Shown here piece after piece: positions 1 through 11,847 of a DNA stretch of 11,847 nucleotides. The position numbers and the translations under genes are program-made. The notes beneath the pieces are model-generated. The model ran no database searches. It saw only the letters and a list, made by a program, of their open reading frames with translations, and was not told where the DNA came from. The number at the start of each line of letters is the position of its first letter. Position 1 is the first letter of the stretch. The DNA comes from Candidatus Aenigmatarchaeota archaeon. GTDB taxonomy: Archaea; Aenigmatarchaeota; Aenigmatarchaeia; QMZP01; QMZT01. The stretch lies in the NCBI GenBank assembly GCA_041489155.1, contig JBGPQP010000020.1:1-11847 (forward strand), read 5' to 3'.

Positions 1-348
1 AAAAACCATTCACATATAAATCTGAGGCTTCTTTTAGTCTGTCCAAAACCCATATATTAAGTGAAATTTTATTGATTTTAGGAATGTCTCTTATGTTTTT
101 TTATTGATTTTAGGAATGTCTCTTATGTTTTTTATTTTTTCTCCGTCTTCTTTAACGACATTTATTGTCCAAATAGATTTTTTCCAATCTTCAATAATTT
201 CTTTTTTACTATTTTCATTTAACTCATTTATATTTTCCGGTATTTTTTCCGGTATTTTGTTCCAATAAAAATATTCATCTCCCGCGAATTCTTTACCAAA
301 CCATTTATGTCGTTTTTTTATCTTTTTTGAATTTTCATTATGTCTCAT
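1..348 (-). pseudogene. AT-rich hypothetical gene frameshifted by a 32-bp tandem duplication; runs off the window start
   Basis: ORF 91..348 ends ...KNIRDIPKINKKT*. A second minus-strand frame reads KNIRDIPKINKISLNIWVLDRLKEASDLYVNGF with no stop to position 1. The frames join at the duplication 71-133. Confidence 0.6.
71..133. repeat. Tandem duplication, period 32 bp (ATTGATTTTAGGAATGTCTCTTATG + T7/T6)
   Basis: Copies at 71-102 and 103-133, identical except for the length of the final T run. Confidence 0.95.
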
Positions 349-2337: not shown

Positions 2338-2346
2338 AGTGATTTG

Positions 2347-3459
2347 ATGGAAAACAGGAGTGCGTTTATCATTCTGGTCGTGGTTTTTCTGGCCCTTTAT
2401 TTCATGCCGGCCGGTTCCCTGCTCTTTGACGGGGCGATACTCAACGCCTTTTCGCTCCTGCACGAGTACGCGACCCAGCACGTCATAACGTGCCTTATAC
2501 CCGCGCTTTTCATAGCCGGTGCCATATCCGTCTTCATCAAAAAAGATTCGGTCATAAAATACATGGGCCCTTCCGCGAAAAAATACATGTCCTATACCAT
2601 AGCATCAGTATCGGGGGCGATACTCGCGGTGTGCTCATGCACGGTCCTTCCGCTGTTCGCCAGTATCAGGAAGCGTGGTGCGGGACTCGGACCGGCCGTG
2701 ACGTTCCTCTTCTCCGGCCCGGCGATAAACATAACTGCCATGTTCCTGACCATCAGCGTGCTCGGCTGGCAGATAGGCGCCGCCAGGATTGTTGCGTCCA
2801 TATCGCTGTCAATACTCGTCGGGCTGACCATGGCTTTCATCTTTCGGGAGAAGGCCGGGAGAGGCAAGTGGAAAATCAAGAAAAGGAAGGCCAAGCCGGA
2901 CGCCAAGGCTTTCGTTGCCGTGCTTTTCCTTTCACTCGTCGGCATACTAGTAGTCAATGGAATACAGACGGGCTTTTTCATAAAATATGCTGTCATGGCC
3001 GCGCTTGCGGTGATTGCAGTCTTCGTAGGCATTTTCGGCTTGAACAGGGAATCCTCGAAAGAATGGCTTGGAGAGACGTGGTTCTACGCCAAAAAACTTA
3101 TTCCCATGCTTTTCATCGGTGTTTTCATAGCCGGAGTCATCATGTATGTTATCCCGGAAGAATTTATCAGAAGTGTAGCCGGGCAAAACACTTTCTTGGG
3201 AAACCTTGCGGTCTCCGTATTCGGGGCTTTCATGTATTTCTCGACGCTTACAGAGATTCCGATAATGCAGGCGCTTATGACCAAGGGCATGCACGCAGGT
3301 CCTGCGTTGTCTTTGCTGTTATCTGGTCCGACCCTGAGCCTTCCCAGCATGCTGGCGATAAGGCAATTCATGGGCAACAAAAAGACGATAGCCTACGTCT
3401 TGCTGGTGATAATTTACTCCGCACTGGCCGGCTTTATTTTCGGGATGATTGCGACTTAG
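2347..3459 (+). CDS. ArsP/DUF318-family permease
   Basis: Polytopic membrane protein with LAVCSCTVLPLF, GPAVTFLFSGPAIN, YFSTLTEIPI and GPTLSLPSM motifs; 9 nt downstream of arsR. Confidence 0.88.
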   Translation: MENRSAFIILVVVFLALYFMPAGSLLFDGAILNAFSLLHEYATQHVITCLIPALFIAGAISVFIKKDSVIKYMGPSAKKYMSYTIASVSGAILAVCSCTVLPLFASIRKRGAGLGPAVTFLFSGPAINITAMFLTISVLGWQIGAARIVASISLSILVGLTMAFIFREKAGRGKWKIKKRKAKPDAKAFVAVLFLSLVGILVVNGIQTGFFIKYAVMAALAVIAVFVGIFGLNRESSKEWLGETWFYAKKLIPMLFIGVFIAGVIMYVIPEEFIRSVAGQNTFLGNLAVSVFGAFMYFSTLTEIPIMQALMTKGMHAGPALSLLLSGPTLSLPSMLAIRQFMGNKKTIAYVLLVIIYSALAGFIFGMIAT

Positions 3460-3521
3460 AACGTGAAGTGTCTTTCATTGTATTCTTTTTAAAGTGTGGC
3501 CGATGTATATCGATTTGACCC

Positions 3522-3597
3522 AAGCCCCAGGAGGGCAAAGAACTGAATTCTCAGATAAGAGGTTTCTACCTATTTATTATCAAGAAAGTTTAAAAGA
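3522..3597. repeat. 76-bp end module A (tRNA 3' copy + conserved block + 20 nt + GTTTAAAAGA)
   Basis: Aligns with 4251-4326: AAGCCC(C)AGGAGG, 23/29 identity over AGAAC...GGTTTCT, 20-nt unrelated stretch, identical GTTTAAAAGA. Confidence 0.85.
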
Positions 3598-3670
3598 GTG
3601 GTGTTTTTTAATAATTTACATGCAAAAAGGAAAGGAGGCGATGCACCCCAAAAGCAAACGAATTTCTGAC

Positions 3671-3934
3671 TTACTGTTTTTTGAAATTCCTGGCTGCATC
3701 AGCGACTTTTTTCCCTTCGTTGTCCAATACTTCTAGAACCCTTTTTTTAATATCCGCACTTGTCACTTCATTTCTGCTCTTGAAATGTTCCTCAACGTCT
3801 CTTACAGCACTGTCTGCTATTTCCGTGGACCTATTTTTGTCGATGTTTGCGTCTGCTGCTGCCCTTTCAATAGCTCTTCTAAGTTTATTACTGTCGAAGT
3901 CCTCTCGCTGGTCATCTCTTTTTATAATTTTCAT
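3671..3934 (-). CDS. Stand-alone ATP-cone domain protein
   Basis: MKIIKRDDQREDFDSNKLRRAI...VTSADIKKRVLEVL matches the ATP-cone pattern also present in NrdR and the RNR in this window; SD GGAGGT upstream. Confidence 0.88.
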   Translation of the reverse strand: MKIIKRDDQREDFDSNKLRRAIERAAADANIDKNRSTEIADSAVRDVEEHFKSRNEVTSADIKKRVLEVLDNEGKKVADAARNFKKQ

Positions 3935-4002
3935 AACAAATACCTCCAGTATTAAAGTAAGTGAAGATTAACCTGAGGGCATATAAAGTAATCTAGGAGG
4001 GG

Positions 4003-4197
4003 CTATGACGCATCAGTCCTTTTCCTGTTGGCATACCTCTCCAGCACATCCTTTTTTATGAACCAGTTCCTGCCCAGTTTGACTGCTTCAATTCTGTCTT
4101 TCCTGACAAGCTCGTAATCCAGAAACCGGGTTATGATTTCGTGATTGTTTTCGCTGGTAGAATTAAGCAGTCTTTCCTCACATCTTCCATACTCCAC
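4003..4197 (-). pseudogene. Excisionase-like (HTH_17/MerR-like) DNA-binding domain, probably N-terminally degenerate
   Basis: The C-terminal half YELVRKDRIEAVKLGRNWFIKKDVLERY fits the xis-type wing motif; the usual N-terminal 'T..EvA..L' helix is not recognisable. Confidence 0.55.
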
Positions 4198-4250
4198 GAG
4201 GACAGAAGACCCAGGACTGTGGACAATGGGGGATTTAAACCCCAGGTTGA

Positions 4251-4326
4251 AAGCCCAGGAGGACGTTAGAACCGAATTCCCATTTAGAAGGTTTCTTTGG
4301 AGTGGTTAGGACTTTGGTTTAAAAGA
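4251..4326. repeat. 76-bp end module B
   Basis: AAGCCCAGGAGGACGTTAGAACCGAATTCCCATTTAGAAGGTTTCT-N20-GTTTAAAAGA; same layout and length as 3522-3597. Confidence 0.85.
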
Positions 4327-4347
4327 TTTTGTTTGGACATGGATATG

Positions 4348-4917
4348 CTAGCTAATTGCAGGTATTACTTTCAGGCCCATGCCCTCCAGTCTTTTCTTTA
4401 ATTTTCCGAGGGCTTTGTGTATATCTTCAATGTTCCTGCCGCCCGCACATATTATTTTTCCTGATCCGAAAAGAAGGAAAACTATCCTAGGATTCCTCAT
4501 CCTGTAGACTAGTCCGGGAAATCTTTCAGGGTCGTACTCAACTTCGTTCATTTGTATTGCCATATCCTCCAGCATCAGCTTCGGTTTTGCTTCAATCTTT
4601 GTTGAGGCGACTATGTTTTCAATTATTATCGTGAATTTTTTGGGCATCGGTATTCCTGCCTTTCTTATGTCGTCCACCACCTTATTTATTGCCTCCTTTG
4701 CCATTTCTGTTGTTTTCGCTCCTGTGCACACAATCTTTCCCGTGGAGAATATGAGTGCGGAAGCTCTCGGATTGCTTATCCTATAGACCAGACCAGGGAA
4801 ACGTTCTGGATTGTATTCCGTGTTATTCATCTTTTCAACAAGTTTGTTAAGAGAAATTTTTCTGTTAAGAACTGCAAATGCCACGACGTTTTCTATCTTG
4901 ACCTGAAATTTAACCAT
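4348..4917 (-). CDS. tbp: TATA-box-binding protein (possibly an accessory paralog)
   Basis: Two TBP repeats: IENVVA...YNPERFPGLVYRISNPRASALIFSTGKIVCTGAK and IENIVAS...YDPERFPGLVYRMRNPRIVFLLFGSGKIICAGGR. ATG 4917 preferred because TTTTAATT lies 24-31 nt upstream; the ORF track starts at 4938. Confidence 0.96.
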   Translation of the reverse strand: MVKFQVKIENVVAFAVLNRKISLNKLVEKMNNTEYNPERFPGLVYRISNPRASALIFSTGKIVCTGAKTTEMAKEAINKVVDDIRKAGIPMPKKFTIIIENIVASTKIEAKPKLMLEDMAIQMNEVEYDPERFPGLVYRMRNPRIVFLLFGSGKIICAGGRNIEDIHKALGKLKKRLEGMGLKVIPAIS

Positions 4918-4955
4918 GAGAAAGTTTATCCGTAACATCTAATTAAAACAAGGTA

Positions 4956-5105
4956 AGCCCCAGGAGGGATTTGAACCCTCAACCTATCGATATCTTATGC
5001 GAATGACATGCACTGCATGCATGTCGGCATGCTGAAGTCATCAGCCGCGAAGGCTTCTTCATATCGATACAAGTCGATCGCTCTACCAGGTTGAGCTACT
5101 GAGGC
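4956..5105 (-). tRNA. tRNA-Thr(UGU) with a 76-nt intron at 37/38 (intron 4992-5067); CCA not encoded
   Basis: Minus strand: GCCTCAG TA GCTC AACCTGGTA GAGC G ATCGA CT TGT A [intron] A TCGAT AGGTT GAGGG TTCAAAT CCCTC CTGGGGC T. C32-U33-U34-G35 pairs with intron UAAG, followed by a 3-nt AU/A bulge (relaxed bulge-helix-bulge/loop). Confidence 0.95.
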
Positions 5106-5188
5106 AACGTTTCGATGGACGCAGGTGGAACCTGCGTCTGTGGCTTGTCCAGCGGATGACAATTGCTTGCGCAATTGTCGGCTTGCTG
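5003..5188 (-). repeat. Three related GAC...GTC hairpin units (tRNA intron 5003-5034; upstream 5115-5147 and 5156-5188)
   Basis: Perfect 8-9 bp stems GACATGCA/TGCATGTC, GACGCAGGT/ACCTGCGTC and GACAATTGC/GCAATTGTC, with shared flanks ATG(G)AC... and GGC(A/T)TG. Confidence 0.7.
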
Positions 5189-5274
5189 TCTGTCTGACTA
5201 ATTAACTTTTTTGCGCTTGAATGTTTAAATTAATGACTGCGACCAAATAAGAATATAATTATCAGGCGATAGGC

Positions 5275-9283: not shown

Positions 9284-10312
9284 TCAGACCTTCACAATTT
9301 CATATGTTCTTTTCCCCATCCCGAGCTTTTCCGCGTATTGCGGTTGGACGGAGACGTCGATCTTGTTGGCGTCCCTGAAGACGTCTCTGCCTGCCTTGTT
9401 TATTATCATATCTATTGAGGCCTGCTCTATCGCCACGACATCGCTGGACGCGAGGATGCCGATGTCCCTCACCATCGGTTTGCCGGAATCCGCGAGGCAG
9501 TCGCAGTGCGGCGTGATGTTGAGCAGGAAGTTAAAGTAAAGCGTCTTGATTTTATTCGTGATGCCGCAGGCGTATTCGACTATGCGTTCCTGTATCTCTT
9601 CGGCGGTCGTGTTGAACCATGGGATTTCGACCGCGCCGTAAGGGCAGACTGCGATGCAGGTCGCGCAGCCGATGCATTTCGCCTTGTCCATGACCGCGTA
9701 TTCTTCGAGGACGATCGCGTCCGCCGGGCAGTTTTTGACGCAAAGGCCGCACGCTTTGCATTTGTTTTGTTTGAAGACGGGCTTGACCTTCGCGTGCATT
9801 TCGAGCTTGCCCGCGCGGCTGCCGAGGCCCATGCCCACGTTCTTGAGCGCCCCGCCGTAGCCTGCGATGGCATGGCCTTTGCAGTGCGTGACAGCGATCA
9901 TCATCTTGTAGTTCTTCAGGCCTGCGCCGACCTTTATTTTCTTGAAATGCTTCCCGCGGATCGGGATTTGCCACTCCTTACCGCCGTCGTCGCAGATGAC
10001 GACATGCGCGAAATCGAAGCCGTGCCTTTTCGCGAGCGAGAGATGCGTTTCAGTTTTCAGGCGTTCCCCGCGGTAGAGCGTGTTGCACTCGACCAGCTCC
10101 GGCTCGCCGCCGCGGATGCGGACGATGTCGCATATCTTCTTCGCGAACGCCGGGTCGAGATGGGTCTTGTTACCCTTCTCGCCGAAATGCATCTTGATGG
10201 CGACGCGCTTGCCGCGGACGCCGAAGTCCTGCGATATCTTCTCATAGAGCTTCTCTATCGCCTGCAGCATTTCGTCCTTCGAAACCTCCGGTGAAAAGTA
10301 GACCTTTGACAT
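9284..10312 (-). CDS. DUF362-domain protein with a 2x[4Fe-4S] ferredoxin insert (COG2768-like)
   Basis: VAIKMHFGEKGN, CNTLYRGER, HCKGHAIAGYGGALKNVGMG, CKACGLCVKNCP, CIGCATCIAVCP, NITPHCDC, DIGILASSDVVAIEQAS. Confidence 0.92.
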   Translation of the reverse strand: MSKVYFSPEVSKDEMLQAIEKLYEKISQDFGVRGKRVAIKMHFGEKGNKTHLDPAFAKKICDIVRIRGGEPELVECNTLYRGERLKTETHLSLAKRHGFDFAHVVICDDGGKEWQIPIRGKHFKKIKVGAGLKNYKMMIAVTHCKGHAIAGYGGALKNVGMGLGSRAGKLEMHAKVKPVFKQNKCKACGLCVKNCPADAIVLEEYAVMDKAKCIGCATCIAVCPYGAVEIPWFNTTAEEIQERIVEYACGITNKIKTLYFNFLLNITPHCDCLADSGKPMVRDIGILASSDVVAIEQASIDMIINKAGRDVFRDANKIDVSVQPQYAEKLGMGKRTYEIVKV

Positions 10313-10905: not shown

Positions 10906-11361
10906 ATGCGCTGCCCGTACTGCTCGAGCGACGAACTGAAGGTGCTTGACAAGAGAACTTCTGACGAGAAATCAATATGGCGGAGAAGGGAGTGCCTGAA
11001 ATGCGGCAAACGCTTCACCACGTACGAGCGCGTCGAATCCGTCGATCTCATCGTCGTGAAGAAGGACGGCAGGCGCGAGCGCTTCGACAGGAACAAGCTG
11101 AAATCAGGCATCCTCAAGTCGTGCGAAAAGAGGCCGATAACCAACGAGATGATAGAGAAGACGGTGGACGAGATAGAAGGCGAACTGCGCGGGGAGGACA
11201 GCATCGAGATACCGAGCAGGAGGATAGGCGAGCTCGTCATGAAAAAGCTGAAGAAGCTGGACAAAGTTGCTTACATCCGCTTCGCGTCGGTTTACAGGGA
11301 GTTCGAGGACATCGAGAGCTTCCAGAACGAACTGAAGAAGCTCACGGGGGGGAAGGTGTGA
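10906..11361 (+). CDS. nrdR: Transcriptional repressor NrdR
   Basis: MRCPYC...RRRECLKCGKRFTTYER zinc ribbon, ATP cone VVKKDGRRERFDRNKL, and LDKVAYIRFASVYREF. Confidence 0.97.
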   Translation: MRCPYCSSDELKVLDKRTSDEKSIWRRRECLKCGKRFTTYERVESVDLIVVKKDGRRERFDRNKLKSGILKSCEKRPITNEMIEKTVDEIEGELRGEDSIEIPSRRIGELVMKKLKKLDKVAYIRFASVYREFEDIESFQNELKKLTGGKV

Positions 11362-11365
11362 ACGC

Positions 11366-11847
11366 ATGGTTCTGAAGAAAGTTAAAAAGAGGGATGGACG
11401 CATAGTGGACTTCGACATGGACAAGATTATCAACGCGGTTTTCAAGGCCGCCAAATCTGTCGGCGGCGAGGACATGGAGCTCGCCAAGAAGCTCGCCGAG
11501 CAGGTGATGCAAGAGGTAGACGAGAAGTTCCCGAAGGAAATTCCGTCGGTCGAGGACATACAGGACATAGTCGAGAAGGTCCTGATAGAGAACGGCCACG
11601 CCATGACCGCGAAGGCGTACATACTTTACAGGAAAGAAAGGGAGGAGGCGAGGAAGGCGAAGGAGATGCTCGGCGTGAGGGACGAGCTCAAGCTTTCGGT
11701 AAACACGATAAAGGTCCTGAAAGCGAGATACCTTATAAAAGACGAGGAAGGCAACGTCATCGAATCGACCTCGGAGATGTTCAGGCGCGTAGCGAGGCAT
11801 ATCGCGCTGGCAGACATCCTTTACCACTACCTTGTCTTCGACAAGGA
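11366..11847 (+). CDS. nrdJ: Ribonucleotide reductase with N-terminal ATP cone, probably class II (B12-dependent); truncated by the window end
   Basis: Manual translation MVLKKVKKRDGRIVDFDMDKIINAVFKAA...SVEDIQDIVEKVLIENGH..TAKAYILYR...LSVNTIKVLKARYLIKDEEGNVIES..EMFRRVA; open to the end. The post-cone motif fits class II/Ia, not class III. Confidence 0.85.
   Translation, partial: MVLKKVKKRDGRIVDFDMDKIINAVFKAAKSVGGEDMELAKKLAEQVMQEVDEKFPKEIPSVEDIQDIVEKVLIENGHAMTAKAYILYRKEREEARKAKEMLGVRDELKLSVNTIKVLKARYLIKDEEGNVIESTSEMFRRVARHIALADILYHYLVFDK

Follow-up and report, generated by a model that had tools for sequence, protein, structure and literature searches.

Repeated modules behind an archaeal tRNA-Thr gene, read as attachment-site arms of integrative elements with a candidate promoter

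We have analysed a pair of repeated modules, each made of a TATA-like box, a spacer and a conserved block, that lie on the minus strand behind a tRNA-Thr gene in a contig of a Candidatus Aenigmatarchaeota archaeon (the window, i.e., the whole stretch of 11,847 nt; contig C20 of the 1.13-Mb genome G000, ca. 90% complete). We believe, with a probability of about 0.62, that the modules are the element-side P arms, together with a 13-14-nt core, of attachment (att) junctions of tRNA-Thr-targeting elements arranged in tandem, that the conserved 29 nt (the 29-mer) carry recombinase sites, and that the box is a promoter reading through the core. A first-pass annotation, made from the letters of the stretch, had read each module as a promoter followed by an RNA of ca. 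46 nt ending in the tRNA target sequence, or alternatively as a promoter directed outward across att. Arms of att junctions left by integrative elements that target tRNA genes are a known kind of structure; the candidate promoter and a mobile unit carrying a TBP gene are the most interesting aspects of the locus. The features needed for the argument are these:

4956..5105, minus: tRNA-Thr(UGU) gene with an intron of ca. 76-78 nt; the integration target (attB side of attL; Rfam RF00005, 55.1 bits, E 7.4e-10)
4955..4968, minus: att core copy 1, CCCTCCTGGGGCTT, the tRNA 3' end plus one T; an exact repeat of 3522-3535
4326-4251, minus: module A, consisting of TCTTTTAAAC (4326-4317), a 20-nt spacer (4316-4297), AGAAACCTTCTAAATGGGAATTCGGTTCT (4296-4268), AACGT and CCTCCTGGGCTT (4262-4251)
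4317..4326, minus: TATA-like box of module A, TCTTTTAAAC, of the type seen in tRNA and open reading frame (ORF) promoters of G000
4268..4296, minus: 29-mer of module A (AGAAACC...GAATTCGGTTCT), predicted start 4296; homologous to the left arm of the attP site in the related genome G003
4251..4263, minus: att core copy 2, TCCTCCTGGGCTT, one G short
3597-3522, minus: module B, consisting of TCTTTTAAAC (3597-3588), a 20-nt spacer, AGAAACCTCTTATCTGAGAATTCAGTTCT (3567-3539) and CCCTCCTGGGGCTT (3535-3522)
3588..3597, minus: TATA-like box of module B, TCTTTTAAAC
3539..3567, minus: 29-mer of module B, predicted start 3567
3522..3535, minus: att core copy 3, CCCTCCTGGGGCTT, equal to the tRNA 3' end

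The 29-mer common to both modules reads AGAAACCT-N9-GAATTCRGTTCT, with GAATTC(G/A)GTTCT as its second half, and lies in each case 4-5 nt from the copy of the tRNA end, CCTCCTGGG(G)CTT. The composite TCTTTTAAAC-N20-AGAAACCT-N9-GAATTCRGTTCT occurs twice in the window with 0 mismatches and not once in 200 dinucleotide shuffles, even at 3 mismatches, which confirms the two minus-strand modules, each with its box, exactly 20 nt and a conserved block, that had been described. The spacer had been called non-conserved in sequence, and it does mostly differ between copies, but CAAAGTYC recurs in module A of G000 and in G004, G017, G022 and G018. Its length was counted in nine homologous copies, the ninth being a related one in G018 added for this purpose, and proved to be 20 nt in seven of them but 19 nt in G021 and 41 nt in the second copy of G003 (G003-b). 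A TATA-like box precedes AGAAACC in every copy. We rejected a coding explanation of the modules, as the plus-strand ORFs that overlap them (3494-3736 and 4145-4309) matched no Pfam family and the pattern of conservation is unlike that of codons.

The second element of the argument is the target. The modules repeat the final 13 nt of the tRNA-Thr gene (5105-4956), whose anticodon loop CUUGUAU, read from the alignment, gives UGU and therefore Thr, and whose 3' end according to Rfam is CCCTCCTGGGGCT. The statement that both modules end in the tRNA target sequence is thus real, with the reservation that the core of module A is one G short. ARAGORN misses this tRNA without its intron option and with -i gives tRNA-Thr tgt, intron i(39,76). 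The core copies are direct repeats of the tRNA 3' end in the tRNA's own orientation, and they track the local tRNA from one genus to another: CTGGGGC is found in genus g1 and CTGAGGC in genus g9, and in G021 CTGAGGC is shared by tRNA and module.

Related genomes provide both empty and occupied versions of the site. In the congener G004 the 3' end of tRNA-Thr(UGU) directly adjoins the flank with the ArsP gene, where G000 has 1494 nt between the two. In another congener, G003, tRNA-Thr(UGU) is followed by a gene for a 374-aa tyrosine integrase (Pfam E 1.6e-22), a rolling-circle Rep gene and others, 9.6 kb in all, and after this element come a first module (a), a unit with an ATP-cone gene (cassette 2, also present in the window) and a second module (b). 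Positions 3522-4296 of the window are 88.7% identical to G003, the homology starting exactly at 4296, the A of AGAAACC, while the tRNA side and the far chromosomal side of the two genomes are only ca. 70% identical. Finally, a second tRNA-Thr (CGU) of G004, with the same 3' end, is followed by a homolog of window 4250-4100 and then by an intact 365-aa integrase, 30% identical to that of G003. The unoccupied tRNA-Thr(UGU) of G004 (L225 1350-1500) has a T stem CTGGG/CCCAG, compared with GAGGG/CCCTC in the occupied genes of G000 and G003, and two positions of its 3' end, CCCAGCTGGGGCT, do not agree with the element core; it is possible that the site is empty because of these differences.

To place the modules within complete att sites, we reconstructed attP for 13 integrase-bearing elements (L026, L208, L210, L211, L213-L216, L219, L262, L271, L276, and L279) by joining the far arm, the core and the integrase-side arm with a script, folding the product and expressing its stability as a z-score against shuffles. 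The first batch contained 15 loci, of which nine were kept; L207, L217, and L220 had no repeat, and L209, L212, and L218 had ambiguous repeats of 11-12 nt. Of 20 regions in the second batch, L260, L263, L267, and L272 were too short and 4 of the 16 analysed were kept, L273, L274, and L278 being dropped because of AT-rich repeats or of repeats located at or within the start of the integrase gene. Att sites were called by repeat search because ARAGORN -i gave a tRNA in only 3 of 14 long loci and overlooked at least one that was already known.

Reconstructed in this way, attP takes the form of a long, imperfect inverted repeat with the core at its centre. The z-score of the joined P arm, core and P' arm was below -2 in 10 of the 13 elements (-3.8 in G003), whereas among the chromosomal junctions this was the case in only one of 13 attR and two of 13 attL sites. 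Exact inverted repeats of 7-11 nt at a similar distance on either side of the core were found in five of the first nine elements. In G003 the left arm of attP starts at G2 of AGAAACC, and the 29-mer is the left half of the repeat. In other words, conservation appears to resume at AGAAACC because the arm of a recombination site begins there. Along similar lines, in six oriented loci (the window, L026, L027, L028, L029, and L044) GAATT..GTTC is confined to the modules and to the stretch immediately following the tRNA core of G003 and G021. It is therefore likely, we infer, that the 29-mer holds recombinase binding sites. Recombinase arm sites had been named as the fallback should the small RNA fail, and this was partly right, since in the intact element of G003 the left arm of the attP inverted repeat is formed by the 29-mer.

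In 10 of the 13 elements the start codon of the integrase gene is found 49-62 nt beyond the core, although their cores and arms are unrelated, and the distance of 53 nt between the core of module A and the following ORF start fits this range. The arm between them (4198..4250) contains a palindrome, GGGGTTTAAATCCCC (window 4225-4243, minus strand), with a TATA-like loop, which is a candidate protein site or hairpin; it is altered, in a compensatory fashion, to GGGCTTTAAAGCCC in G004 (L024 ca. 1530-1545) and to GGGGATTAAATCCCC in G003 (L026 ca. 10270-10285).

The 29-mer with its core was found in eight copies, in 6 of the 91 genomes of the order and 2 of its 45 genera, the homologs lying at tRNA-linked sites. 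The integrase family is much more widespread, with 25 of the 91 genomes of the order and 106 of the 371 genomes of the class. Four further matches to the pattern with two mismatches within the order had dissimilar flanks and were taken as chance. In public genome contigs a loose pattern matched at least 119 stretches, and among the matches listed only one was real, the already known G017 contig; a tighter pattern gave no match in viral contigs and two in metagenome contigs, both by chance. A 4-kb element of G018 with an integrase gene occupies a different tRNA core, and its far end reads CTTTTAAAT, 20 nt and AGAAACCCC, the 20-nt spacer being nearly identical to that of G017.

Whether the box is a promoter is the more delicate part of the question. 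In G000 the heptamer TTT[AT]A[AT][AC] ends 20-23 nt before the ATG of long ORFs in 91 matches among 789 upstream regions, with a mode of 21 and at most nine matches at any single other distance, so that most mRNAs of this genome would be leaderless and the distance from box to start is known. The spacing of 20/21 between module box and AGAAACC is this modal distance, and the start is accordingly predicted at AGAAACC. The tRNA genes of G000 have the same box types behind A-rich stretches, and the sequence upstream of the module box is likewise A-rich. In six of the 13 elements a box directed towards the core ends 50-59 nt short of it, compared with 0-3 in any other 10-nt bin, even though the integrases are only 30-45% identical and the arms are not alignable. 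A Shine-Dalgarno-like (SD-like) motif precedes the integrase ATG in five of the six elements with such a box vs. one of the seven without (one-sided Fisher ca. 0.025, calculated by hand); over the whole of G000, SD-like motifs were found in 168 and leaderless-type boxes in 80 of the 789 regions, and both together in only 3 ORFs. An SD-led integrase gene needs an upstream promoter, and in the circle only the core and the far arm lie further upstream. From these sequence comparisons we give about even odds to the claim, considered by itself, that TCTTTTAAAC is a real archaeal promoter. The earlier suggestion of an outward promoter across att thus keeps its ground as far as the module is the element-side att arm, its spacing is the host mode and six of 13 relatives have similar boxes, and as a promoter it is plausible but unproven.

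The sequence of events that we propose would be as follows. Integration of elements in tandem behind tRNA-Thr(UGU) would have left att junctions, the modules being a P arm plus core. Transcription would begin near AGAAACC and continue across the core. After excision, in the circle, the transcript would run via the attP palindrome into the SD-led integrase gene; in the integrated state the promoter would read outward, into the next unit or the chromosome. What had been described as a 46-nt RNA would be the 5' leader of a longer transcript and not a separate RNA gene.

Several observations weigh against this scheme. No integrase gene was found in the window by Pfam, only an N-terminal remnant of 24 residues, and a search of the ca. 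90% of G000 that is available gave a single PF00589 match, on another contig, and none to the G004 integrase at E<=1e-20. A stretch of 60 nt (3462-3521) that separates the last core from the flank of the empty site is unaccounted for. The units of the window, joined as hypothetical circles, lack the palindrome (z 0.08, -0.96, and 0.83). The 13 elements were picked by eye from 31 integrase loci and are mutually related, and the 50-59 bin was defined after seeing the data, on these related elements. As to the promoter, the flanks of the module boxes score at the 63rd-84th percentile of all boxes in a position weight matrix (PWM) built on the surroundings of genuine leaderless promoters, with -1.1 to 3.5 vs. 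a training mean of 6.8; module B has no co-oriented gene downstream; the box of G003-b is displaced to 41 nt; and the genes that follow cores (TBP, a small membrane protein, a radical-SAM enzyme) have TATA-like boxes of their own 20-24 nt before the ATG, so they do not need the module. We read the modules of the window as relics because the cognate integrase is absent from the G000 search and the window has only the remnant; judged from their sequence, the window units are relics or chimeras.

An alternative that retains the att junction is that the box is not a promoter at all, but a protein site of the architectural or arm type, rich in A and T, or else sequence that has merely been inherited, kept at a constant helical distance from the recombinase sites. 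All the att-junction evidence applies to it equally, and the intermediate PWM scores, the boxes of the downstream genes themselves and the orientation of module B, which faces no gene, are what it would lead one to expect. Besides, not every element requires an upstream promoter, as L262 and L276 have a leaderless-type box in the P' arm, 21-23 nt before the integrase ATG, and TATA-like heptamers are common in AT-rich spacers (2041 in G000). However, the host type of TATA box has been kept among elements whose integrases and arms have drifted so far apart, where an integrase-specific arm site would be expected to diverge, and such a site would not account for a spacing equal to the host TATA-to-start mode, for the co-occurrence of the box with SD-led integrases or for the A-rich sequence upstream, as in tRNA promoters. 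We consider this alternative rather unlikely, albeit one to be taken seriously.

A discrete RNA of ca. 46-60 nt that copies the 3' end of tRNA-Thr, acting as a fragment mimic, as a decoy for a 3'-processing or CCA-adding enzyme, or as a recombination guide, is in our view very improbable. The promoter geometry would fit it, and the predicted 5' end lacks a start codon, in a genome where leaderless mRNAs predominate. The outermost cores of G021 and G022 precede a T-rich trailer (TTTTTATTTTTT or CCTTTTT) that could terminate archaeal RNA polymerase, and a short transcript could arise there, where the core precedes the T-tract of the old tRNA trailer; the two copies in the window have no T-tract. 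The sequence after the core differs from copy to copy, and there is thus no conserved 3' end. The co-variation of the core with the local tRNA would suit a mimic, but is expected from att duplication anyway. The first-pass annotation had proposed a tRNA-fragment mimic, a trans-splicing piece or a guide, with pairing between AGAA(A)C and GUUCU that could be checked by covariation. Rfam searched over the modules gave no family at E<=1. Fold z-scores in the eight module copies ranged from -0.97 to +1.20 with differing structures, none better than shuffles, and the RNAalifold consensus of the copies reached -3.1 kcal/mol. In the AGAA(A)CC/GGUUCU helix 4 of 6 pairs are invariant and the two variable pairs only break (4 of 48 cells), with 0 compensatory changes among the eight copies; these covariation and fold tests rest on eight related copies and have low statistical power. 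The tRNA portion of the modules is only 13-14 nt, and GAGGG, the 5' strand of the T stem, is absent from both; without this partner neither a tRNA half nor a substrate for tRNase Z can form. We rejected a split or trans-spliced tRNA half on the same grounds, only the last 13-14 nt matching and an intact, intron-bearing tRNA-Thr being present. The restriction of the module to 6 of 91 genomes, always at element ends, also speaks against an RNA gene, and a discrete small RNA from the module is not supported by these comparisons.

A local tandem duplication or chance low-complexity similarity unrelated to mobile elements, for which the mere two copies in G000, 729 nt apart and in one orientation, could be quoted, is hardly credible given the absence of matches in 200 shuffles, the tRNA-linked homologs in five other genomes of two genera, the existence of empty and occupied sites and the unrelated sequence between and upstream of the copies.

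The region between the tRNA and the chromosomal flank consists of two core-bounded units, one of 715 nt with a TBP paralog and one of 729 nt with an integrase remnant and an ATP-cone ORF. The minus-strand order is tRNA-Thr, TBP gene, module A, "xis-like" ORF, ATP-cone ORF, module B and the convergent ArsP 3' end. The remaining features are:

4264..4954, minus: body of the TBP cassette, comprising a 37-nt left arm with its own TATA-like box, the TBP paralog gene and the arm of module A
4938-4348, minus: TBP paralog ORF, likely start 4917 (Pfam TBP, E 6.7e-55)
4198..4250, minus: P' (left) arm of a decayed integrase element, with palindrome GGGGTTTAAATCCCC inside; homologous to the arm after tRNA-Thr(CGU) of G004
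4003..4197, minus: "xis-like" ORF of 64 codons, an integrase N-terminal remnant followed by a partial HTH_17/excisionase-like stretch
3671..3934, minus: stand-alone ATP-cone ORF of 87 aa, the cargo of cassette 2 (Pfam ATP-cone, E 2.9e-13)
3462..3521, minus: 60 nt from the last core to the resumed homology with the G004 empty site
2344..3459, plus: ArsP-type permease gene, convergent chromosomal flank (Pfam ArsP_1, E 7.3e-81)

The TBP unit is of particular interest. Core to core (4254-4967) it is 97.8% identical to the end of the main contig of G004 (C2; L028 6006-6724), while the chromosomal flanks of the two genomes are 69-89% identical, and the homology stops at 4967, inside core copy 1. In G004 the unit is preceded by a gene called here ORF X and a degenerate module, not by tRNA-Thr(UGU). 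The G000 counterpart of that locus (contig C9, 44348-44378) is without the TBP unit, the G004 copy being a 712-nt insertion exactly after the core. Each genome thus has the other's TBP-unit site empty. The contrast in identity, together with the two different cores, implies that the TBP unit moved recently as a discrete, core-bounded unit without a recombinase. The window TBP is 71% identical to a TBP encoded on contig C3, the alignment beginning at M8, and G000 has at least three TBP loci. On contig C9 of G000 (43721-44600) there is a second tRNA-Thr (CGU, with an intron; ARAGORN calls it Ser), then ORF X, of ca. 130 aa and rich in alanine and histidine, then a degenerate copy of the module (GGAATAAGTGCT..CCCTCCCGGGGCTT) and the gene of a small membrane protein rich in Cys and His, which is also found 3' of the module in G004 and G022.

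The "xis-like" ORF had been placed in the path of module B, but the module that faces it (4197-4003) is module A (4326-4251), and module B (3597-3522) faces the 3' end of the ArsP gene. Nor does the ORF appear to be an excisionase gene: it begins as the remnant of an integrase N-terminus, with 15 of 24 residues identical to the G004 integrase (E 7e-9), its match to HTH_17 (23.9 bits) is below the cut-off of 27 and that to TIGR01764 is likewise below its cut-off, and the reading frame is not open in G003. It is probably a pseudogene. The ATP-cone ORF, by comparison, is intact in G003 (92 aa). The 12-kb window encodes three ATP-cone proteins, the other two being an NrdR-type regulator and the N-terminus of a ribonucleotide reductase (10906-11361 and 11366-11845). 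Near the contig start there is also a perfect 32-nt tandem duplication, TTTTATTGATTTTAGGAATGTCTCTTATGTTT twice (window 67-130, plus strand).

The tRNA-Thr leader is seemingly ca. 95 nt long and contains two hairpins (window 5106-5230, minus strand). The best promoter-like box nearby is TTTAAAC at 5229-5223, ca. 120 nt before the mature 5' end, with a flank score at the 98.8th percentile. In contigs of two other DNA runs a part of the leader, 77-85 nt long (5121/5124 to 5202/5207), is missing. Long introns are frequent in the tRNA genes of G000, as 20 of 30 ARAGORN -i predictions have introns of 25-177 nt, some of the isotype calls being clearly wrong.

In the contigs of four DNA runs we found no back-joints of excised circles; contigs drop rare forms and are uninformative on this either way. 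In these runs the contigs with the tRNA continue into unlike sequence from 4955/4956 (X3, X4, and X5), and one X4 contig stops matching at 3539. These unlike continuations are a weak hint of variable junctions, in which tRNAs of other organisms may be involved.

Short recombinase-less units lying between recombination sites and accumulated in arrays are familiar from cis-mobilizable elements (CIMEs) and from integron cassettes. The TBP unit resembles them in being recombinase-less, core-bounded and present at two different cores, from which its mobilisation in trans may be inferred. One could go further and see the locus as a tRNA-anchored, integron-like array of TBP paralog, ATP-cone and ORF X cassettes, in which the module of ca. 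75 nt would be both the cis site of an integrase acting in trans and a junction promoter, and in full elements a switch responding to excision. The cassettes would be shuffled between cores and species by an integrase supplied in trans, and it is only in the circle that the transcript from the module would adopt the attP hairpin and extend to the SD-led integrase gene. This extended picture is tentative, and we hold it to be unlikely as a whole. There is, in contrast to integrons, no resident integrase, attI or common cassette promoter by the array, which begins at a tRNA gene, and the site is an attP-type arm with a tRNA-derived core and not an attC hairpin, the single-strand fold of the module being no better than shuffles.

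The proposed promoter arrangement is reminiscent of bacterial integrative and conjugative elements (ICEs). For ICEKp1, ICEclc and ICEEc1, the portion of the source consulted describes int as driven by the tRNA promoter in the integrated state and by a promoter of the 3' end after excision (PMC13023037). The likeness, as far as that portion goes, lies in an element behind a tRNA gene, int adjoining the tRNA, a far-end promoter that reaches int only once the ends are joined, and a structured 5' untranslated region (UTR) of int (PMC13023037). The differences are considerable. The bacterial cases involve sigma-70 promoters, large conjugative elements and experiments, whereas here we have an archaeal TATA-type box, elements of 0.7-15 kb, a genome of ca. 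1 Mb and comparison of sequences, and the structure in the 5' UTR would be the attP inverted repeat itself.

Closer in phylogeny is SNJ2, a haloarchaeal pleolipovirus for which excision and circularisation are reported, in the sections consulted, to create a transcription unit and an ORF spanning attP (PMC13107129). It too is presented there as an archaeal tyrosine-integrase element at a tRNA gene (PMC13107129). The integrases studied here most resemble those of pleolipoviruses, to which they are distantly related (31% identity and E 3e-42 to that of Geoglobus acetivorans pleomorphic virus 1, GacPV1). The hosts are unrelated, though, and those same sections describe no module of the TATA-N20-29-mer type (PMC13107129). 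GacPV1 is not comparable as to the end module because the far end of its record is inside the Rep gene, with no intergenic end. For archaeal tyrosine recombinases in general, the part of a review available to us lists the targeting of tRNA 3' portions, tandem integration, loss of the integrase gene and exchange of modules between tandem elements (PMC8371274), and in all four respects the locus described here resembles what that part sets out (PMC8371274). It differs from the core-type sites beside a 7-bp overlap and the SSV-type integrases split by integration that appear in the same part (PMC8371274), in that the integrase of the present elements is not split, the block of identity spans 13-17 nt and attP has the form of an inverted repeat of ca. 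35 nt per arm.

An apparent small-RNA gene thus becomes the end structure of a widespread family of integrative elements in very small archaeal genomes. For annotation, this means that tRNA 3'-end fragments after a module mark the boundaries of elements and should not be taken for tRNA pseudogenes or for RNA genes. Should the box prove active, the arrangement would be an archaeal counterpart of the switching of promoters between integrated and excised states that bacterial ICEs were recently shown to have. Moreover, a paralog of a general transcription factor, TBP, travels between species on an integrase-less unit of only 715 nt, which bears on how regulators are gained and lost in reduced genomes.

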